Shown piece by piece: positions 3,981-20,440 of a DNA stretch of 21,258 bases. The stretch is taken from positions 1-21,258 of IMG/VR virus record IMGVR_UViG_2778261303_000012, one strand, 5' to 3'. The stretch is from a virus. Lineage: Duplodnaviria; Heunggongvirae; Uroviricota; Caudoviricetes. A model generated the notes under the pieces. The model had not been told where the DNA came from and searched no databases. It saw only the letters and a list, made by a program, of their open reading frames with translations. Each line of letters starts with the position of its first letter. The stretch's first letter is position 1. A program made the position numbers and the translations under genes.

Positions 3981-4595
3981 ATGAGTAATAACATTTTTGA
4001 TATCGAGAAATTCAAAGATCAAATTCCATATTATTTAACAGCTCCTCAAAAAGAAGGGCTAATAAATGCACTTAGAGATTTCCCTGAAAACACTAACTAC
4101 TACCTTACCAATTATCATGATGATCTGAAAAATGCTGCACTTCAGGGAGATATATTTAAGGAGCTTACAGTATATTCAATTAAAGGGACTAAAAAAACAC
4201 GAGGAATTATATTAAGCAACAGTTGCGATATAGATACAAGTAATAATCGTGATGTGCCAATGCGTGCAGTCTTTGCTCCGTTAGTAAGTTTATCTAAGTT
4301 CGAAGCTATTCTTCTCTCCAACGGAGTTTCTAAGACTTCAATAGATAGCAAAATTGATGCTATAAGGAAGCAGTTAATTACTAATATTTTTTATCTTCCT
4401 GAATCAGACAACTTAGAAGAATGCATCGTTTTTCTTGATGATGTATACCAATTACCAACGGAAGAATTACAAAAACTCTTGAATGATAAATGCAAAGCCA
4501 TAACTTTAAGTCAAGTTGGTTTCTACATTTTACTATTCAAAATATCTATTCACTTTTGTAGATTCCATGAAAACATACAACGATTCGATCATTAA
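3981..4595 (+). CDS. hypothetical protein, cassette gene C (204 aa)
   Basis: ATG at 3981 directly follows gene B stop (TAA 3975..3977; a GTG at 3978 is an alternative start), suggesting translational coupling. Followed immediately by a terminator hairpin. No family recognised. Confidence 0.55.
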   Translation: MSNNIFDIEKFKDQIPYYLTAPQKEGLINALRDFPENTNYYLTNYHDDLKNAALQGDIFKELTVYSIKGTKKTRGIILSNSCDIDTSNNRDVPMRAVFAPLVSLSKFEAILLSNGVSKTSIDSKIDAIRKQLITNIFYLPESDNLEECIVFLDDVYQLPTEELQKLLNDKCKAITLSQVGFYILLFKISIHFCRFHENIQRFDH

Positions 4596-4620: not shown

Positions 4621-4965
4621 TTACACAAGTATACTTACAACCCCCTCTATAAAACCGATTGCGGTTTGCAACTCCTTCCTAATAGTGCCATCAGAGCACC
4701 TTCTCTTTTTGGCAATAGTGCGTAATGAGATACCAATAACAAAGTGGGCTATGATGAGCTCATATTCCTCTGGTTTATACCTTCTCAACCGAGCCACACA
4801 ACTGTCTATCATAATGCCTTCGTCATCATCACACTGAATCCGTGACTTTTTGCCATGAGGTAAAAGCCCCTTGAAGCCTGCTGCTACCGGCTGCCAGTCC
4901 ACACCACTGTTGTCTGCTGCAGCCCATGCTCCCCAGCGGTCCAATACTTCATACATATCACGCAT
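4621..4965 (-). CDS. lambdoid antitermination protein Q-like (QuuD type)
   Basis: Start moved to ATG 4965 (ORF-track start at 4980 is TTG); GGAG RBS 8 nt upstream. N-terminus MRDMYEVLDRWGAWAA..GFKGLL....KSR.QCDDD matches my recollection of DLP12 QuuD (MRDIQMVLERWGAWAA...). Last gene of the minus-strand early operon. Confidence 0.7.
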   Translation of the reverse strand: MRDMYEVLDRWGAWAAADNSGVDWQPVAAGFKGLLPHGKKSRIQCDDDEGIMIDSCVARLRRYKPEEYELIIAHFVIGISLRTIAKKRRCSDGTIRKELQTAIGFIEGVVSILV

Positions 4966-9481: not shown

Positions 9482-9702
9482 GCAGCACCTCCGAGATGCT
9501 TCATGTTTTTTCCGGAGCGAAAGGCTATAAGCGGCATACTGACGCGGTAACTACGGCCCAGCGGTTCACAAATCACCTTCTGACATTCACGGTCAACCAG
9601 GCTAACACGTAGAACATGCCCTTCAGGTGTGGTGTACCACTGACCCGGACGAGGACAACGGAAAGTCTGATTGGTAAACCGTTTGAAAATATTCCGGATC
9701 AT
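9478..9702 (-). CDS. hypothetical 74-aa protein, translationally coupled between rha and the replication gene
   Basis: ATGA overlaps at both ends (Rha stop / its ATG at 9699..9702; its stop / replication-gene ATG at 9478..9481). Contains a CxxxP...C pattern; no family recognised. Confidence 0.5.
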   Translation of the reverse strand: MIRNIFKRFTNQTFRCPRPGQWYTTPEGHVLRVSLVDRECQKVICEPLGRSYRVSMPLIAFRSGKNMKHLGGAA

Positions 9703-10256
9703 TTGCGCCCCCTTACCTCTGAAGGGTTCAGCAACAAATTTATGAGGCAGGCCAGTGCCGAAGCATCATTAATATAGTCATACAAGCTAACAGCCAGCGG
9801 AGATTCGGCTTTTGCCAACATAGGATAAAGCTGCTGCAGCCAGACCTGATGAATTGATGAAATGTAGGAATAGAGAACGCTGGCGTTATGTGCAACGTCG
9901 CTCAGTACAGAGGGCTTTGAAAGCTGTTTCTCCATCTGGTTAAAGGCATTGATGTATGCCTCTTTGAACTGGGCAGCACGTTTACCCGTGAAACCCATAG
10001 CAAGAAACGCAAAGCCGTCGCGAGTGATTTGATAGCAAGGAAGCTTGCGTGTACCACCGTTCGGTTGATTTACCGAAATAGATGTCTCCGCAAAATTGCG
10101 GGCACAAAACTCAGGGGAACAATCCAGAGTACGGATCTTTTTCAGCACATCGTCGTGACGCTTGGAGAAGAAGTTTGCAACAGCTAAAGAAGTGGTAACG
10201 GCTTGGCCGTTGTCAATGGTGATTTCAGGTTGAGTAAGGGCTGGGATCGTAGCCAT
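9699..10256 (-). CDS. Rha-family phage regulatory protein
   Basis: Start set at ATG 10256 (GGAGG RBS 8 nt upstream), giving 185 aa: MATIPALTQPEITIDNGQAVTTSLAVANFFSKRHDDVLKKIRTL...GTRKLPCYQITRDGFAFLAMGFTGKRAAQFKEAYINAF is the Phage_pRha signature. The 499-aa ORF in the track is a read-through artefact. Confidence 0.8.
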   Translation of the reverse strand: MATIPALTQPEITIDNGQAVTTSLAVANFFSKRHDDVLKKIRTLDCSPEFCARNFAETSISVNQPNGGTRKLPCYQITRDGFAFLAMGFTGKRAAQFKEAYINAFNQMEKQLSKPSVLSDVAHNASVLYSYISSIHQVWLQQLYPMLAKAESPLAVSLYDYINDASALACLINLLLNPSEVRGRK

Positions 10257-10586
10257 GATGGCAGCCTCCGTTGACAGTGAAAAACTTCCACCACCGGAAA
10301 CGCCAATTTCACTGGTGGTGAACTGGACGGGGTTGGCGTAACCGGCGTCAACGGAGACCGGCGCACCTTTCGGTGCCCCCGTCCAGCCCACCATAATCTG
10401 GATGTGAACAAATGCGGACGATAAAAAAGACGCTGGCGCGTCATACATCGCCGTTGACAATTTCAGGACGCCAATCCCGGCACCTGATTTTTCAGGTGCT
10501 GAAGCAGTGTATACTCGAAATAAATCATGATCAATAATGATGCGAGGATGGGGGTTAACCGTTATCTCAAAATAAGGAGATACAAC

Positions 10587-10928
10587 GTGAGATACCAACT
10601 TTTGGCTAACAGCAGCAGAGGTGATGGTTTTTACGATGTAACCATCAGCGATAATAGCGGCAACCTCGAAATAGAATGCACTTGTATGGCTGGTGAAATG
10701 GGTACAATGTGTAAGCACCGTATTGCCGTTATTACAGGAAAATATGGAAATATCATAGATATTGATGATCCTGAAAACGCCGATGCAAAACTGGCAACCG
10801 ACCTGATTGCTAAATATGGAATTACAGAGCAATACCTTGCTCTTGCTAAAGAACTCGAAGACCTGAAAAAGAGGTTCAAGGTTGAAGAAAAGGCTATCAA
10901 ACTGAGAATTAATGCCTTGGCAGGGTAA
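10587..10928 (+). CDS. small SWIM-type zinc-finger protein, antisense moron within the early operon
   Basis: Start at GTG 10587 preceded by AAGGAG with 7-nt spacing; 113 aa. Contains CTCMAGEMGTMCKHRIAV, i.e. CxC-x9-CKHxxAV, the canonical SWIM zinc-finger pattern. Lower GC than flanking genes and opposite orientation. Confidence 0.6.
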   Translation: MRYQLLANSSRGDGFYDVTISDNSGNLEIECTCMAGEMGTMCKHRIAVITGKYGNIIDIDDPENADAKLATDLIAKYGITEQYLALAKELEDLKKRFKVEEKAIKLRINALAG

Positions 10929-10965
10929 GCTCTCAGTTAAAATTTGTTTCATTTGGTTAGCTCTC

Positions 10966-11198
10966 ATCCTTCCCCTTACGGCAGAAGAGTTCAGTAAAGA
11001 ATTGATTAAACCAGCAAGCGCCGCTGCGTCATTGATGCGGTCATAAAGGCAATTCAGGCCCACAGTCAGGTAAAATTCTCTGTGGTTAATTACAGCCAGG
11101 TGATTTAGTAATCTGCATTCATGCCGTAACAACAGATGTTCAGAGACGCAGACCACCAGCTGTTGCGACAAACGGTTATTTGCCGTTAAACTGTTCAT
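10966..11198 (-). other. short ORF / relic resembling the 3' end of rha, translationally coupled to the CII-like gene
   Basis: ATG at 11198 overlaps the CII-like stop (ATGA). Encoded ...LYDRINDAAALAGLINSLLNSSAVRGR parallels the Rha C-terminus ...LYDYINDASALACLINLLLNPSEVRGRK, and the DNA at 10967..11060 is about 70% similar to 9705..9800. The reading frame then runs open across the antisense of the SWIM gene, so its true end is unclear. Confidence 0.35.
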
Positions 11199-11752
11199 GC
11201 GTTAGTTTCTCCACAACTAGAAGCAATCGACGCCACGACGCCCGGAGCTGCACACTCGCGGGCGTTACTCTTTTCTGGAGCGCAGAAGATTTTGTAGACC
11301 AGTGCTGCATGCTCCTGGAGCTTCGAAATTGACAGATACAACTCATCATTAATTGCTGTTTGCTCGTGTAGCTCCACTACCCCATCTTCGATTGCCGAAC
11401 GAATCTGCTTTGAGTAACTCCCGATCTGTTCGATGACTTCCAGCAGGCGCTGGTTTATATCGGCGTTCTCTACTTCCTCAATTTCAGGAAGTGATACAAA
11501 CACCCCACCAGCAGACTGTGCGACAGCATCCGCAATGTGATGAGTACTAGCCGCACGCTGTAAAACCATTGCCCATCCCAACGGAAAAAACTGATCACCA
11601 TCGGCACGAAGGCGGTTGAATAAAGCGTTCTCTGTTACATCCAGCCACTCAGCAGCTTCAGCGTAACCACCTGGCAATGCCGCGATAGTTTTTCTGACAG
11701 CTTTCACGTACCAGTCAGGTTGTTTTTCCACTTTCCAGTGATGCTTACCCAC
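11195..11752 (-). CDS. CII-like / YdaT-type phage regulatory protein
   Basis: 185 aa, GTG start with AGGAGG RBS, overlapping the cro-like gene by 8 nt; position directly after cro and general resemblance to Phage_CP76/YdaT-type proteins (recollection, not verified). Confidence 0.55.
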   Translation of the reverse strand: MGKHHWKVEKQPDWYVKAVRKTIAALPGGYAEAAEWLDVTENALFNRLRADGDQFFPLGWAMVLQRAASTHHIADAVAQSAGGVFVSLPEIEEVENADINQRLLEVIEQIGSYSKQIRSAIEDGVVELHEQTAINDELYLSISKLQEHAALVYKIFCAPEKSNARECAAPGVVASIASSCGETNA

Positions 11753-12005
11753 GGCTTACCTCCTGTTCCTGTGGTTTAAACCCATTCTGGTTTTGGCTAG
11801 ATTGAAAACGTGCCGGATAAAGAATCTGCATTTCGCTGATTTCACCCTTAAAAAAATTGGCCAGACGTTCTGCAAGATCGATAGATGGAATTTGTTCCAG
11901 TCTTTCAATACGACTCAGCGTCGCTGGATTGACCTGAACGCCCGCAGCAACATGCTGCAAAGTAAATCCGTGCGCCTTACGCACATTCCGTAATGGTGAT
12001 TGCAT
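11745..12005 (-). CDS. Cro-like HTH repressor
   Basis: 86 aa, GGAGG RBS 5 nt from the ATG. HTH segment FTLQHVAAGVQVNPATLSRIERLEQIPS; divergent from the cI-like gene across an operator-rich intergenic region. Confidence 0.7.
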   Translation of the reverse strand: MQSPLRNVRKAHGFTLQHVAAGVQVNPATLSRIERLEQIPSIDLAERLANFFKGEISEMQILYPARFQSSQNQNGFKPQEQEVSRG

Positions 12006-12102: not shown

Positions 12103-12795
12103 ATGAACATAGGAAATCGAGTCAGACAACTTCGCCAGGCGAAGAACATGAAAATCGCCGATCTCGCTGAAGCAATAGGAGTGGATGCGGCGAATATCTC
12201 ACGCCTGGAAACAGGTAAGCAGAAACAATTCACTGAACAAGCCCTGAGTAATATTGCCAGGAGCTTAGGTGTTGATATAGCTGATCTCTTTACCTCAGAC
12301 TTCAAAAGTAATACTGTATGTAAAAACAGTATTAGTGAGGATGTTGCGCAGGTGAAGGATGTATTCCGTATTGAAATGCTGGATGTCAGTGCCAGTGCGG
12401 GAAATGGCCTTATCCAGGGCGGTGATGTCATTGATGTGATTCATGCCATTGAATACAGAACTGATAATGCTGTATCGATGTTTGCCGGACGGCCAGCCAA
12501 TCACATTAAAGTTATCAACGTTCGTGGGGACAGTATGTGTCCAACCATTGAGCCAGGAGATCTCATCTTCGTTGATGTCAGTATCAATCAGTTTGATGGA
12601 GATGGTATCTATGTATTTGGTTTTGATGATAAAATTTATGTCAAACGACTACAAATGATACCTGACAAACTACTGGTGATTTCTGATAACCAGATTTACC
12701 GTGAATGGGGAATTACCAGCGAAAATGAACACCGGTTTATGGTCTTTGGAAAGGTCTTAATCAGCCAGTCACAAACCCTTAAGCGACACAATTAA
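12103..12795 (+). CDS. CI-type prophage repressor (HTH_XRE + S24 LexA-like autopeptidase)
   Basis: 230 aa. N-terminal HTH (RVRQLRQAKNMKIADLAEAIGVDAANISRLETGKQ); C-terminal S24 fold with catalytic Ser in VRGDSMCPTIEPGD and Lys in YVKRL; candidate Ala-Gly cleavage site in SASAGNG. Confidence 0.85.
   Translation: MNIGNRVRQLRQAKNMKIADLAEAIGVDAANISRLETGKQKQFTEQALSNIARSLGVDIADLFTSDFKSNTVCKNSISEDVAQVKDVFRIEMLDVSASAGNGLIQGGDVIDVIHAIEYRTDNAVSMFAGRPANHIKVINVRGDSMCPTIEPGDLIFVDVSINQFDGDGIYVFGFDDKIYVKRLQMIPDKLLVISDNQIYREWGITSENEHRFMVFGKVLISQSQTLKRHN
12309..12334. promoter_or_regulatory. LexA-box-like palindrome inside the cI coding sequence
   Basis: TAATACTGT-ATGTAAAA-ACAGTATTA: perfect 9-bp inverted arms with CTGT-N8-ACAG geometry; the core TACTGTATGTAAAAACAGTA matches the E. 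coli SOS box consensus TACTGTATATATATACAGTA at 16 of 20 positions. Confidence 0.45.
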
Positions 12796-12815: not shown

Positions 12816-12836
12816 AGCCACCCGAAGGTGGCTTTT
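12816..12836 (+). terminator. rho-independent terminator downstream of cI
   Basis: AGCCACC-cgaa-GGTGGCT hairpin followed by TTTT, 20 nt after the cI stop. Confidence 0.65.
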
Positions 12837-12850
12837 CATCACCCATCAAA

Positions 12851-12902
12851 TTGCATATGTCGCAACAAAACACTTGCATAATACGCAACTTCATTTTATC
12901 TT
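12851..12902 (+). promoter_or_regulatory. OL-like operators and candidate pL promoter
   Basis: Two TTGC-N7-GCAA sites (TTGCATATGTCGCAA 12851..12865; TTGCATAATACGCAA 12874..12888) matching the site at 12068..12082. Tentative -35 TTGCAT (12874) and -10 TATCTT (12897) with 17-nt spacing. Confidence 0.4.
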
Positions 12903-13313
12903 TCTTTCCAGACCAACAAACAAGGTACTAACAAAATTTGGTTGTAACACGGCGTATGGCACATGCGTCGTTAGCGGTCTGGGGACGTTAAAGGGGACAA
13001 TCCACTCCTTGCTCGAGCAAACAAACCAGGTAGCCGGAATGTGCAAGTCAATGATGATGCTGATAAGACGCCTAACCAGCGTGGCGATTCGGTTTGACGC
13101 CTGGGAAGAGACCAGGGTGCAACGATGAGGGCATTTATGGAGCCGCGACAAAGTGTGGTGCCATAACTGGCTAAGTGCTCTCAGCGTTGTGGTAATCCGC
13201 GAAATGGCGCGGCGGTAAGTATGGCGGGGTTATCCTTACCCCATTAGTGGCACCGGGTTGTCAGGTTGACCATACGCTTAAGTGACAACCCCACCACAAC
13301 AGCCACTGCTTTG

Positions 13314-13446
13314 GCGGTACCAGTTTGTACACTTGCTTCCGGCTGGTACCGCTCTTTTTACAAAACAGAGAAGAGCATCACCGGACGACGGGCTCATAAC
13401 CCAATCCACCCGGGCGGCTGCCACCGCAGGTGTTCTTCTCTGTTTT
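13314..13446 (+). other. two adjacent long hairpins in the untranslated leader of the early-left operon
   Basis: Hairpin 1: GCGGTACCAG (13314..13323) pairs with CTGGTACCGC (13343..13352). Hairpin 2: AAAACAGAGAAGA (13362..13374) pairs perfectly with TCTTCTCTGTTTT (13434..13446) around a GC-rich 59-nt loop; ends 50 nt before the first gene. Confidence 0.45.
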
Positions 13447-13496
13447 GTGGAGAAACCAACCGACCTTGCAGGGTCGATATGATGAGGAGCAGCAAA

Positions 13497-13859
13497 ATGG
13501 CTAGCGAACGCAGTACTGATGTGCAGGCATTTATCGGGGAGCTGGACGGCGGCGTATTTGAAACCAAAATCGGCGCTGTTCTCAGTGAAGTCGCTTCCGG
13601 TGTGATGAACACGAAAACCAAAGGTAAGGTCTCGCTCAACCTGGAAATCGAACCGTTTGATGAGAACCGTGTGAAAATAAAACACAAACTCTCATATGTT
13701 CGCCCGACTAACCGCGGGAAAATTTCCGAAGAAGACACCACCGAAACGCCGATGTATGTCAATCGCGGTGGTCGCCTGACTATTCTGCAGGAAGACCAGG
13801 GACAATTACTGACTCTTGCCGGTGAACCTGACGGAAAACTCCGCGCAGCAGGTCATTAA
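13497..13859 (+). CDS. YfdP-like prophage protein (120 aa)
   Basis: Start set at ATG 13497 (GAGGAG RBS, 7-nt spacing) rather than the 197-aa track ORF, whose N-terminal part crosses the leader hairpins. Size and position before a YfdQ/YfdR/YfdS-like block match the CPS-53 arrangement as I recall it. Confidence 0.55.
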   Translation: MASERSTDVQAFIGELDGGVFETKIGAVLSEVASGVMNTKTKGKVSLNLEIEPFDENRVKIKHKLSYVRPTNRGKISEEDTTETPMYVNRGGRLTILQEDQGQLLTLAGEPDGKLRAAGH

Positions 13860-18662: not shown

Positions 18663-18675
18663 ACTAAGACCATGA

Positions 18676-18704
18676 ATAACCCGTGTATATACGGGTTATT
18701 TTTC
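18676..18704 (+). terminator. rho-independent terminator after the excisionase-like gene
   Basis: AACCCGT-gtatat-ACGGGTT hairpin followed by ATTTTTC; overlaps the stop codon of the convergent membrane-protein gene. Confidence 0.55.
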
Positions 18705-19244
18705 TTTATCGCCATCTTTTCTAGATTTGAACAATCCACTAACAACGAAGCCAACCAAACCAACAATACTAATTGTACTTGTTCCCAGTAATGCAACGAT
18801 TGCTTCAACTGGCGGCTTTCCTTCATGAGCAATAAGAAATGATACAAACATTCCGGCTACAAATAAGCACCAACACGACATAAACCAAACCGTGAATGAG
18901 GCCATTTTTGTCCGAAGCTCATTGTCTATTTCTTTACCAGTTGCGTCAGCTATCTTATCCCGTACTTGTGACTTGAGCATATCAAGCTGAGCTTGAAGAC
19001 TGTCCATTCTGTTCTGCTGCATAAACTCATGCAATGCACCAGTATTAGAACCAAACTCTTCTGCCTCCAGAATAGCCTTATTTTCTGAAGAAGAATCATC
19101 ATCGCGCTCATGATTAGACGGCTCAAATGCGGATTCAAAAGCCTGCTCTTGGCTGTCAGTAGAGTTTAAGGATGCTTCAGAGCGACCATTTTCAACACCT
19201 GCGGCCGCTCCGATCAGTTTATAGATATCTGAATTATGAGACAT
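18696..19244 (-). CDS. membrane protein with acidic N-terminal region, coiled coil and C-terminal two-TM hairpin (candidate toxin/effector)
   Basis: 182 aa. N-terminal about 60 residues acidic and low complexity, predicted coiled coil (LQAQLDMLKSQVRDKIADATGKEIDNELRTK), then two hydrophobic helices (FTVWFMSCWCLFVAGMFVSFLIA; AIVALLGTSTISIVGLVGFVVSGLF) and a basic tail. Starts 22 nt after the Panacea-domain gene. Confidence 0.6.
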   Translation of the reverse strand: MSHNSDIYKLIGAAAGVENGRSEASLNSTDSQEQAFESAFEPSNHERDDDSSSENKAILEAEEFGSNTGALHEFMQQNRMDSLQAQLDMLKSQVRDKIADATGKEIDNELRTKMASFTVWFMSCWCLFVAGMFVSFLIAHEGKPPVEAIVALLGTSTISIVGLVGFVVSGLFKSRKDGDKEK

Positions 19245-19740: not shown

Positions 19741-20440
19741 AACCACCCTCCTCATTACACTGAATGTGCAAACAGTATCATCACTGTTATCTCAACCTAA
19801 CACGAACAAAAAAGTTTTGGAAGATTGCAAGAGCAATTCACTGTGTTTATAACCAGCAAATGACTGTACATATACACAGGTTACAAATTGGTGGCGAATT
19901 ATACCTGCAGAAGTTGCGATGTCAACAAAGCGACCATCACAGTGTTTTGCATCTCACACTGTTATGACAAAAAATCTTTTGATAGGTTCCCAATAGGCTC
20001 CCACAAAACACATAACCAATTGTTTTTCAAAAACGATACATCCTATCGAGCATTGGTGCAACGCTAAACCGACCACTCCAGTGAACGTCAGTTTTTTCAG
20101 GCATTGCGCTGGTTTGGTTGATTTTTTGCATTTCAGAATTACCGTGCATTTTCAAATGTAGAGATTATTTTATCGATATATCATGGGGTTATGTTATTCA
20201 GCATCACTGTTCAGGAGGCTCAATAACGGGGTACTATACCATAACAACAGGAAGCGCCTGTCTCATTGCAAAAGAAAATTGAGATCCTCTCAAGGCATGA
20301 AGCTCTCACGAAGTGATGGAAATAATCTTATTAGCCGTTAGCTTTGTTAAGGCCAATGATAAACAATCCAGGTTCGACGATAAATAAAAATCACACATTA
20401 AACTCCGGTGATATCTCTCCCTGCTAATAGCACTGATAGA

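Follow-up and report, generated by a model that had tools for sequence, protein, structure and literature searches.

The approximately 650-base region that follows the repressor gene of this prophage, positions 12837-13496 of the window (the whole 21,258-nucleotide stretch of DNA analysed here), is a string of non-coding RNA modules (Table 1). The leader it encodes is probably a polycistronic non-coding RNA precursor, ended for the most part at hairpin 1 and processed into small RNAs, as the same layout of the C element, hairpin 1 and hairpin 2 in the Qin ydfABC-dicF-dicB operon suggests. A sequence-only reading of this DNA had described the stretch between the cI terminator and the first early-left gene as untranslated, highly structured and downstream of OL and pL, a description that holds. 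Its interpretation is partly supported; it overlooked the B RNA and the cloverleaf in the 360 nt upstream of the hairpins, along with the homology to the dicF locus.

The repressor gene (12103-12795) encodes a product matching PHROG CI-like repressor families. Exact copies of TTGC-N7-GCAA occur only four times in the window (6078, 12068, 12851 and 12874) and three of them (12068, 12851 and 12874) flank this gene; the repeats at 12851 and 12874 bear out the OL-like operators of the earlier reading, with pL itself being a candidate. We infer that pL overlaps or lies just after these operators, with hexamers TTGCAT (12874) and TATCTT (12897) 17 nt apart that are weak by consensus and fall under the threshold of the consensus scan. 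The B RNA starts about 40-60 nt past this candidate promoter. At the other end of the leader, yfdP is the first early-left gene, matching phrog_204 over residues 1-119 (E = 1e-49). The profile of the YfdP family begins at the ATG at 13497, and the same 363-nt gene is annotated as SfV orf32 and mEp460_035. The sequence-only reading placed the two hairpins correctly; as a correction, the first gene begins at 13497 and not at 13498. Downstream the operon continues in the order yfdP-yfdQ-yfdR and on to an operon-end terminator at 18674-18701. The segment 13300-13500 folds at -85.8 kcal/mol versus -59.2 +/- 4.9 for its shuffles (z = -5.4), none of the 200 shuffles being as stable.

Table 1. Features of the leader and its borders (window coordinates)
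Feature	Position	Strand	Description
Intrinsic terminator of cI-like repressor gene	12816..12836	+	AGCCACC-CGAA-GGTGGCT then TTT, read from sequence
Two OL-like operators	12851-12865 and 12874-12888	+	direct-repeat family, TTGCATATGTCGCAA at 12851, TTGCATAATACGCAA at 12874
B RNA core	12948..13125	+	conserved structured RNA; about 245 nt with distal helix to 13189
B helix H1	12950-12957 / 12963-12970	+	loop GGCAC
B helix H2	12979-12982 / 13026-13029	+	closes variable insert
B near-invariant segment	13029-13047	+	GGUAGCCGGAAUGUGCAAG
B helix H3	13068-13071 / 13079-13082	+	7-nt loop
B pseudoknot	13074-13077 with 13091-13094	+	
B helix H4	13100-13104 / 13112-13116	+	loop GAAGAGA
H5 distal helix	13127..13189	+	GAGGGCAUU 13127-13135 with AGUGCUCUC 13174-13182; variable insert inside, conserved tail CAGCGUUG after
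C element, cloverleaf-like four-way junction	13186..13300	+	minimum-free-energy fold
C acceptor-like stem	13186-13193 / 13293-13300	+	
C first arm	13197-13201 / 13208-13212	+	
C second arm	13226-13242	+	GGGGU/ACCCC, 7-nt loop UAUCCUU
C long arm	13255-13263 / 13283-13291	+	9 bp
Hairpin 1, predicted intrinsic terminator	13301..13359	+	13-bp stem 13313-13325 / 13341-13353, T-run 13355-13359, short 5' single-stranded segment
Hairpin 2, long conserved stem-loop	13360..13448	+	arms 13360-13384 / 13424-13448, 25 nt, 84% complementary
Hairpin 3, small stem-loop	13461..13476	+	seen in fold; just 5' of RBS
yfdP and its RBS	13484..13859	+	GAGGAG 13484-13489, ATG 13497, stop 13859, 120 aa

It is very improbable that the region is instead protein-coding, whether through an antisense ORF at 13278-13685, through the 84-aa or 86-aa ORFs over B or through the full 197-aa ORF. 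The antisense ORF does match phrog_3651 (E = 2e-86), a 66-aa ORF matches phrog_33599, and ORFs are annotated here in mEp460 and phage cdtI. However, since PHROG draws its families from deposited annotations, spurious ORFs in conserved DNA can also give rise to families, and the records of SfV, ST64B and the Stx2c phages have nothing annotated here. Among the matches listed, stops interrupt the antisense frame in 18 of 82 variants, and 17 of 82 break the N-terminal frame of the 197-aa ORF, while the hairpins persist in both cases. Furthermore, substitutions in the helices are compensatory, the inserts between the conserved blocks vary freely in length, and the ORFs over B match no PHROG family. 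Likewise, the absence of a convincing ORF in the leader was confirmed, the 84-aa (+), the 86-aa (-) and the 77-aa extension all being without a PHROG family; the 77-aa extension is the N-terminal part of the 197-aa ORF that the earlier reading had doubted, and the YfdP profile starts only after it, at 13497. A conserved small ORF within B was rejected as well, since 1-nt indels put the ATG in the H1 loop at the head of different frames in different variants. Several deposited phage ORFs over the leader, and the PHROG families derived from them, are probably spurious.

The B RNA and the cloverleaf element

Folded as a single sequence the B region is unremarkable (z = -1.3), so its structure is seen only through the comparison of homologues. 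In alignments of 34 and 58 homologues, the B helices are paired in 94.7% and 94.1% of cells, respectively, versus 22-45% when the partners are slid; both partners have changed in 11-12 pairs, and 84-119 cells are compensatory. The pseudoknot pair 13074-13094 also emerges from a mutual-information scan (CG in 47, AU in 6, unpaired in 0). The many G-U pairs in B identify the + strand as the RNA strand. A covariance model of B (R1) scores the window at 141 bits. The covariation that the sequence-only reading had named as a check on the leader is present in B, H5, C and hairpin 2, as compensatory base pairs.

The Rfam search that it had likewise proposed (Rfam 15, 4227 models) gave zero matches at gathering score in the region, be it for B, C or hairpin 2. 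At E <= 10 the region had only chance-level microRNA and snoRNA matches, and 13 related loci had none. As Rfam is without a put family too, the lack of B from it is no proof that B is undescribed. B is unannotated in RefSeq, a literature search with its invariant 16-mer returned nothing, and a Pas/STnc100 preprint, an EHEC Hfq-CRAC paper and a 50-genome ncRNA survey concern other loci. B is a candidate for RNA family databases, as a new covariation-supported, pseudoknotted family of about 180-245 nt with no Rfam match.

B is widespread. Of 5426 complete E. coli genomes, 1637 (about 30%) carry it, and it is also present in P1, in phiV10/epsilon15-like phages, in Stx2c-converting phages and in no fewer than 12 enterobacterial genera. 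A cI-type repressor gene on the same strand directly precedes it, at a median distance of 154 nt, in 85 of 164 distinct contexts. Its orientation is always that of the downstream genes, which are diverse (yfdP, ban and five other families). Real tRNA genes adjoin B in 43 of 125 loci, and one locus (L022) has two tandem copies. In phiV10-like phages, a promoter-like sequence, B, a tRNA and a terminator together make up a self-contained unit, and in P1 B lies about 2.5 kb from Pban and directly before ban with no terminator between. SfV and ST64B lack the B core but retain the terminator, hairpin 2 and yfdP; the Qin prophage of K-12 has C and dicF, also with the B core absent. A search of the window with model R1 found no second B copy after pR. 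Across the loci examined, the modules follow one order: B core, H5 with its tail, then a tRNA-Arg, a tRNA-like element or nothing, and then a terminator of the form GGCGG...CCGCC plus U-run.

The conserved, pseudoknotted fold of B, its invariant junctions and its place as the first RNA transcribed from pL suggest that it binds a protein or the polymerase. Attenuation was considered as well: a duplex between B's invariant segment and the 3' half of the terminator would reach -23.5 kcal/mol, only about 2.5 sd beyond shuffles (p about 0.016). This pairing was rejected, as other parts of the leader do equally well or better and it is lost in loci with other terminators.

The distal helix H5 exists in the compensatory versions GAGAGCA/UGCUCUC, GAGCGCAC/GUGCGCUC, AAGCGCA/UGCGCUU, GAGAACAC/GUGUUCUC and AAGAGCA/UGCUCUU. 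Together with its tail it also stands before the tRNA-Arg of phiV10 and before the K-12 C element 5' of dicF. The C element that follows H5 has 90.2% of its cells paired versus 35-57% when slid, with 8 pairs changed on both sides in 19 variants; the covariation in C, like that in hairpin 2, is drawn from few independent lineages. C is 87% identical to K-12 positions 1649248-1649373, immediately 5' of dicF, and shares 77% identity with the ban leader of P1, where the region annotated as dicF-like comes right after it. In 26 related loci its slot is filled by a real tRNA-Arg(UCU). C itself was rejected as a tRNA, as ARAGORN found none in the window, the Rfam tRNA model found none at E <= 10 and there is no canonical T loop. 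An NCCA end is not general among the elements of this slot, and a proper NCCA is absent from the C of the window.

The three hairpins

Hairpin 1 contains the perfect 10-bp stem (arms 13314-13323 / 13343-13352) noted in the sequence-only reading. By sequence it is a predicted intrinsic terminator, a G+C-rich stem followed by a U-run: its stem has -20.7 kcal/mol and is followed by CTC and TTTTT (13355-13359), the string right after the stem being CUCUUUUU. An automatic terminator scan missed it because the loop is 15 nt and the limit of the scan 8. It is the only + strand intrinsic terminator from pL up to the one that ends the operon. Of the roles proposed earlier for the hairpins, that of a terminator stands, for hairpin 1, and those of the put and nut types do not. 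Terminators also occupy this position in homologous loci, with compensatory changes as in GGCGGTGCCAG...CTGGCACCGCC, and hairpin 1 aligns with K-12 dicF via TTTGGCGGTA[T/C]CAGTTT...CTTTTTA.

By genomic position hairpin 1 resembles DicF, the classic small-RNA inhibitor of cell division, with a cloverleaf upstream, a repressor-controlled early operon around it and a Rho-independent terminator as its end. Membership in the Rfam DicF family (RF00039) was rejected, 13285-13365 being unmatched at E <= 10 while K-12 dicF scores 76.7 bits (gathering 48). So was ftsZ as a target: across the ftsZ ribosome-binding site K-12 DicF reaches -38.5 kcal/mol in RNAduplex (z = -1.5), whereas the RNA of the window reaches -24.8 kcal/mol (z = +1.4, worse than shuffles) and leaves the binding site unpaired. 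Without a DicF model match or complementarity to ftsZ, the hairpin 1 RNA is a positional relative of DicF, and hairpin 1 is perhaps only a terminator.

The 13 bp at 13362..13446 reported earlier for hairpin 2 fall inside a larger stem, perfectly paired over its outer 15 bp; the folding energy of the hairpin is -45.3 kcal/mol, and its apical region is conserved and branched. Its 25-bp stem can be extended to about 30 bp by pairing 13355-13359 with 13451-13455. Across 17 diverse homologues, pairing holds in 98.4% of the stem cells and two pairs are compensatory (GC/AU/CG and GC/GU/AU). Hairpin 2 is found in SfV, in ST64B and in all of at least 82 distinct variants among the loci listed as matching the 17-mer CTGTTTTGTGGAGAAAC, a retention that partly follows from the search, as the 3' arm of the hairpin itself contains the 17-mer. 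UG occurs in 17 of 17 at three positions and GU in 6; such pairs would be A-C mismatches on the other strand, which favours an RNA structure of the + strand. Hairpin 2 sits where an RNase III-processed stem follows dicF, and its conserved stem of 25 bp (about 30 extended) compares with the roughly 20 bp or more of nearly continuous dsRNA taken as the mark of an RNase III substrate. Hairpin 3 is swapped in homologues for other small hairpins, e.g. CCGCCCCTACGGGGGC and CTGGCGGTGGCAACCGCCA.

Proposed processing of the leader and competing explanations

If the leader is an RNA precursor, a repressor-controlled pL analogue would transcribe, in order, B, C, the short RNA of hairpin 1, hairpin 2, hairpin 3 and yfdP-yfdQ-yfdR and the following genes. 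By analogy with the Qin operon, most transcripts would stop at hairpin 1 and be cut to stable small RNAs. As the cloverleaf occupies the slot of the real tRNA-Arg of related loci, it is a putative processing signal for RNase P and/or RNase E; a cut there would free B on the 5' side and a terminator-bearing small RNA on the 3' side. Hairpin 1 would thus be both a leaky terminator and the 3' end of a small RNA, with some polymerases reading through it, as the Qin operon again suggests. In the read-through RNA, the 25-30 bp stem of hairpin 2 is a putative RNase III substrate; a cut there would detach the yfdP mRNA from the non-coding part and determine the 5' end and translation of this mRNA.

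B could instead act in cis as a protein-independent processive antiterminator, put-like yet outside the put family, which we consider a possible, if unlikely, explanation. Folding as the pL transcript emerges, B would then bind the transcribing RNA polymerase and take it past hairpin 1 into the early-left genes, in place of N. As the sequence-only reading had stated, no N-type gene is recognisable: PHROG scans of the window ORFs and of the first genes downstream of homologous leaders found no N-like protein. N is likewise noted to be missing from the yfdP/Q/R-type early-left operons of LLS and ST64B, for which a put-like mechanism has only been speculated on (PMC12315714). B is also the first structured element after pL, often behind a cI-type repressor gene (the 85 of 164 contexts above), and an intrinsic terminator lies between it and the genes. 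Its constant orientation before diverse genes fits a general function in transcription, its invariant junction nucleotides and pseudoknot suggest a specific binding partner, and it has in common with put stem I the H1 motif ACGGCG...CAUGCGUCG. However, the earlier suggestion of a put-type RNA failed. A put covariance model (R2) was built from seven RNAs (HK022 putL and putR, HK639, phiEt88, CobraSix, S9-5 and PdC23), which it scores at 57-94 bits (HK639 94, HK022 putL 93 and putR 57). With filters off, it finds nothing in 12837-13496 at E <= 10; its best match in the window is at 11107-11196 (-), with 11.8 bits and E = 0.24. In the reverse search, model R1 found no put, so that the two models fail to cross-detect, and BLAST with putL returned no yfdP-type phage. 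The contexts argue against an antiterminator as well: SfV and ST64B have the terminator, hairpin 2 and yfdP without the B core, K-12 Qin carries C and dicF without B, P1 has B about 2.5 kb from Pban and directly before ban without an intervening terminator, phiV10-like phages use B to head a small unit with a tRNA, and there is no second copy past pR.

It is rather less likely that B represents a new class of nascent-transcript RNA acting on the transcribing RNA polymerase, analogous to put but folded differently. If true, this would explain how the large group of N-less lambdoid prophages whose early-left operons are of yfdP/Q/R type or of other kinds pass the terminator of the pL leader, and the cloverleaf/tRNA slot together with the terminator in the position of DicF would be a general "RNA cassette array" of enterobacterial phages. 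More doubtful still is that B, alone or together with C, acts in trans as a stable RNA produced soon after induction, perhaps titrating a host protein, a small RNA or a tRNA-directed defence nuclease as a decoy or sponge; the leader would then be just a convenient repressor-controlled location. The spread of B as a mobile module among unrelated phage types (lambdoid, P1 and epsilon15-like), the adjoining real tRNA genes, the tandem copies in one locus and the self-contained phiV10-like unit are in keeping with such a role. It has no nameable target or partner, and it is compatible with an RNA precursor rather than in contradiction to it. Scarcely credible, finally, is that the hairpins serve an unrecognised N-type protein as a nut-like site, or that they function as DNA, whether as a cruciform or as a palindrome bound by a protein. 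In favour, each stem is palindromic in the DNA too, and CGCTCTTTTTA at 13350-13360, followed by a hairpin, resembles boxA. However, this string is the 3' arm of hairpin 1 plus the U-run and is unconserved, homologues reading CCGTCC, CCGCCC or CCGACC, so the nut/boxA assignment was rejected, and with it the nut-like site offered by the earlier reading; no N-like protein was found, the G-U pairs of hairpin 2 favour an RNA structure on the + strand and the T-run follows hairpin 1 on the + strand only. By sequence, neither hairpin is a put or nut element. For lambdoid phages without N and put, B, hairpin 1 and hairpin 2 make the question of early-left expression testable.

Relation to put, dicF and other phage RNAs

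The put RNAs of HK022 and HK639 are structured and lie just downstream of pL in N-less lambdoid phages, before terminators, and the same holds for the B leader. The position of B past an early promoter in an N-less phage fits put, but position alone is not specific to put. The motif shared by helix H1 and put stem I includes the G-U pair and is a lead only. Moreover, put spans about 70 nt and consists of two stems, with the conserved elements GAACGGCG...CAUGCGUCGG and GGCGGGUUCAGGAUGAACGGCAAUG, the last of which is absent from the leader, whereas B, at about 180-245 nt, contains four or five helices plus a pseudoknot and has no copy after pR. HK022-type put acts in cis, and its read-through of terminators depends on the zinc-binding domain of the beta' subunit of RNA polymerase.

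Structured phage non-coding RNAs that are linked to tRNAs or processed by RNase P include C4 of P1/P7, CI of P4 and species 1 and 2 of T4. Like the modules described here, they are structured and either tRNA-shaped or co-transcribed with tRNAs in the leaders of phage operons. A C4 RNA was found by Rfam elsewhere in the same window, but B and C have no similarity to it in sequence or by Rfam model, and RNase P processing of B and C is a supposition. The prophage small RNA family STnc100/PasD (RF02076) gives no match to C or hairpin 2 of the window even at E <= 10. In SfV, ST64B and mEp460, the elements that occupy the slot after the CGUUGUGG tail open with the motif of the STnc100-like K-12 post-dicF element (GUGGUGAAUGCGGCUCAGCGC in SfV/ST64B, GUGGUGAAUGCGCAGGCUGAUGCGC in mEp460). 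These slot elements and C appear to be interchangeable cassettes.

The closest known system is the dicF locus of Qin, a cryptic lambdoid prophage of E. coli K-12 (ydfABC-dicF-dicB, under DicA/DicC control). There, early Rho-independent termination and RNase E processing of the 5' end produce the 53-nt DicF, and an RNase III cut of the full-length operon transcript just downstream of dicF gives a 72-nt form (PMC9438474). The two loci differ in that Qin has the protein genes ydfABC upstream and no B core, that the DicF 5' seed UUUCUGGUGACG and the ftsZ-complementary loop are absent from the terminator RNA of the window, and that the element past the terminator is STnc100-like in Qin (34 bits, under the gathering score of 47) and a different hairpin in the window. 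Both nevertheless lie past a cI-like repressor gene within an early-left-type operon, and both have an H5-like helix, the tail CCGGUUGUGG, the 87% identical cloverleaf, a Rho-independent terminator with the arm UUUGGCGGUA(U/C)CAGUUU plus U-run and a long-stemmed element after it, then the next gene. By this comparison dicF is one variant of a widespread modular array of leader helix, tRNA or cloverleaf, terminator small RNA with a variable 5' part and long stem, an array that suggests how such small RNAs may be processed and arise anew by cassette exchange.

Immunity region, leader and hairpins

The immunity region carried by the window is lambdoid, and three of the four exact matches to TTGC-N7-GCAA in the window flank the repressor gene. 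yfdP is followed by yfdQ, yfdR and the methyltransferase, exonuclease and xis genes. The minus strand carries a sigma-70 consensus promoter (12/12; TTGACA, 16 nt, TATAAT) at 19898-19925, after the early-left operon has ended. In the rightward operon, C4, isrK and an antirepressor constitute an immI module of the P1/P7 type. C4 antisense RNA (82 bits) adjoins isrK (73 bits) at 10311-10499 (-), inside the N-terminal part of a 499-aa ORF (9699-11198) whose matches to PHROG Rha/Ant regulators are limited to residues 204-499; this ORF is therefore over-extended.

Features of the immunity region, the leader and the early-left operon
Feature	Position	Strand	Evidence or remark
cro-like gene	11745-12005	-	
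cI/LexA-type repressor gene	12103-12795	+	PHROG: CI-like repressor families
Terminator of repressor gene	12816-12836		
Two operator-like repeats	12851 and 12874		3' of repressor terminator
B core	12948-13125		helices H1-H4 and pseudoknot
H5, distal helix	13127-13182		tail to 13189
C, slot element of the window	13186-13300		folds as four-way junction
Hairpin 1	13313-13353		followed by T-run
Hairpin 2	13360-13448		
yfdP, first early-left gene	ATG 13497		GAGGAG before ATG; phrog_204 match
Strong terminator closing early-left operon	18674-18701		

Comparison of homologous loci establishes how the leader is built, and that its elements are conserved and covary. The sequence-only reading had placed two hairpins in a leader with no convincing ORF and no N-like gene. 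Both hairpins are present where it described them, and the fold of 13300-13500 is much more stable than those of shuffled sequences (z = -5.4). With a 17-mer of hairpin 2, taken from its 3' arm, as search word, at least 120 loci were found, giving 82 distinct variants among the matches listed, and in all 82 a terminator with its U-run is directly followed by hairpin 2, whose presence in these loci comes partly from the search because the search word lies inside it. The terminator stems vary among the listed homologues, compensatory versions included; in the stem of hairpin 2, 98.4% of cells are paired and two pairs covary. ORFs across this region are unsupported: those of 84 aa and 86 aa, and the added N-terminal stretch of the 197-aa ORF, a stretch which that reading had doubted, match no PHROG family. 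An antisense ORF (13278-13685) does match one, yet 18 of the 82 hairpin-keeping variants among the matches listed have this frame interrupted. PHROG scans also bore out the absence of an N-like gene, finding no such protein in the window or as the first gene 3' of homologous leaders.

B is a structured RNA of enterobacterial phages and prophages

B, the first element of the leader, is a real structured RNA. Among 34 representatives, 94.7% of cells are paired versus 22-45% with the partners slid, and 11 pairs have changed on both sides (84 compensatory cells); for 58 model-aligned sequences the values are 94.1% versus 26-44%, with 12 such pairs and 119 compensatory cells. A mutual-information scan recovered the same helices and a pseudoknot pair, from the H3 loop to 13094, that is CG 47 times and AU six times with no exceptions. 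As G-U pairs are frequent in B, the plus strand is the RNA strand. H5, a fifth, distal helix around a variable insert, occurs in at least five compensatory versions, and the conserved tail CGUUG lies 3' of it. Single-sequence folding of B does not make the structure visible (z = -1.3), and Rfam holds no family matching B or its relatives.

An invariant 16-mer found 120 loci (102 distinct sequences) in IMG/VR. A 19-mer search of species-representative genomes found 24, among them loci in Kosakonia, Escherichia, Phytobacter, Citrobacter, Kluyvera, Klebsiella, Enterobacter, Buttiauxella, Pseudescherichia, Pseudocitrobacter, Superficieibacter and Ca. Erwinia dacicola. By megablast alone, B is present in 1637 of 5426 complete E. 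coli genomes and annotated in none. A same-strand cI-type repressor gene ends a median of 154 nt upstream in 85 of 164 distinct contexts, so that B is typically the first RNA from pL; another 40 contexts are epsilon15-like, the remainder being P1-type and a few others. The first genes downstream of B are diverse, and none is N-like. One viral contig (L022) has two tandem copies about 650 nt apart, at 3991-4154 and 4798-4959 (-), scoring 129 and 170 bits. In the window, the B model also matches weakly at 18837-18896 (-) (11 bits, E = 0.02), inside ORF 18696-19244 (-); this match, which contains an exact 13-mer, GUAGCCGGAAUGU, from the invariant segment of B, could be chance or a remnant.

Exchange of modules in the leader

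The leader is pieced together from mobile modules: 705 nt compared by BLAST with phage genomes separates into blocks, each with its own distribution. Block B (~12937-13192) is also found in mEp460, phage cdtI and Stx2c-converting phages, directly 3' of tRNA-Ile and 5' of ban in P1, P7 and D6, and directly 5' of tRNA-Arg in phiV10 and other epsilon15-like phages. Block C (~13186-13308) recurs in other prophages and the P1 ban leader, and block D, which comprises both hairpins and the first part of yfdP, in SfV, SfIV and ST64B. Across loci the order is fixed: B core, H5 and tail, a "slot", then a terminator (...UUGGCGG...CCGCC and a U-run). In 26 loci a genuine tRNA-Arg(UCU) fills the slot, its acceptor stem beginning inside the tail; elsewhere the slot is empty or taken by one of several structured elements with GUGG at the start and CCAC at the end. 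In SfV and ST64B (GUGGUGAAUGCGGCUCAGCGC...) and in mEp460 (GUGGUGAAUGCGCAGGCUGAUGCGC...), the slot element shares the start motif of the K-12 STnc100-like element, so STnc100-like RNAs, C and tRNA-Arg look like interchangeable cassettes. At several loci B has an H5-type 3' strand and tail (GGAGUGCGCUUCCAGGUGUG) on its 5' side, which indicates that B itself can occupy an array slot. The P1 copy of B has no H5 and continues, between its core and ban (L003 3195-3225), into AUUUUCUGGUGA, identical to the sequence across the 5' end of K-12 DicF (AAUUUUCUGGUGACG); this site may be a recombination junction of cassettes.

C has 90% of cells paired versus 35-57% slid, with eight covarying pairs; the covariation gives modest support, mainly from the P1 and K-12 copies. 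As a tRNA, C failed the membership test. Its acceptor-like helix is formed by GUUGUGGU (13186-13193), similar to GcvB's G/U-rich R1 seed, and ACCACAAC (13293-13300). The latter includes CACAAC and with the next base, 13301, reads CACAACA, the consensus of GcvB targets cited for AgvB, a prophage anti-sRNA (PMC4104026). This likeness may well be coincidence.

SfV and ST64B retain H5, tail, slot element, terminator, hairpin 2 and yfdP, the B core being replaced by another conserved leader sequence, module E. This non-coding module (...CAGGCAGGACGCCCACGAAGUAGCCGCC...GGAUGAUUCG...) lies directly 3' of pL (SfV, L126 1690-1790; ST64B, L127 1930-2030) and may represent a further leader RNA, also undescribed; its CAGGAUGA motif resembles put, and the put model does not match it.

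Proposed termination and processing, and the dicF locus

The arrangement suggests that most pL transcripts would stop at hairpin 1 and be processed into B, C and a small RNA that bears the terminator, while a cut in hairpin 2 of read-through transcripts would yield the yfdP mRNA. We consider this model rather probable. That B is instead an antiterminator carrying polymerase past hairpin 1 seems unlikely. The sequence-only reading had offered a put-type RNA or a nut-like site among its explanations, and neither held. A covariance model built from HK022 putL and putR, located in the genome, and their collected homologues recovers put RNAs at 57-94 bits and has no match in the region, nor does the B model match put; ACGGCG...CAUGCGUCG, common to put stem I and B helix H1, is a lead and not evidence of membership. 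The boxA-like string is not kept among homologues, and the nut membership test failed. The top put-model match in the window, at 11107-11196 (-) (11.8 bits, E = 0.24), falls where the cII-like gene meets the antirepressor gene, about 800 nt downstream of pR; mEp460 and SfV carry this sequence too, and the match is probably chance. As tested, the leader fails membership of put, nut, DicF and tRNA alike. For DicF, the Rfam model gives 76.7 bits for K-12 dicF and nothing for the window, and the window hairpin-1 RNA is not complementary to the start region of ftsZ.

Among the closest known arrangements is that of the E. coli K-12 cryptic prophage Qin, where dicA (cI-like) is followed by ydfABC, a 340-nt gap, dicF and dicB. 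As in the window, the gap holds an H5-like helix with tail CCGGUUGUGG, and a copy of C, 87% identical to that of the window, ends 8 nt before dicF, the position of hairpin 1. Hairpin 1 and dicF have UUUGGCGGUA(U/C)CAGUUU and a U-run in common, and P1 has the same layout, C preceding a region annotated as dicF-like. Between K-12 dicF and dicB, a long-stemmed STnc100-like element takes the position of hairpin 2; this stretch (L133 2433-2642), whose outer stem is long, reaches 34 bits with the Rfam STnc100 model, below the gathering score of 47. The 53-nt DicF RNA arises by early Rho-independent termination and 5' trimming by RNase E, and RNase III cuts the read-through operon transcript just downstream of dicF (PMC9438474). 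Judged by sequence and order, the leader is homologous to the dicF locus.
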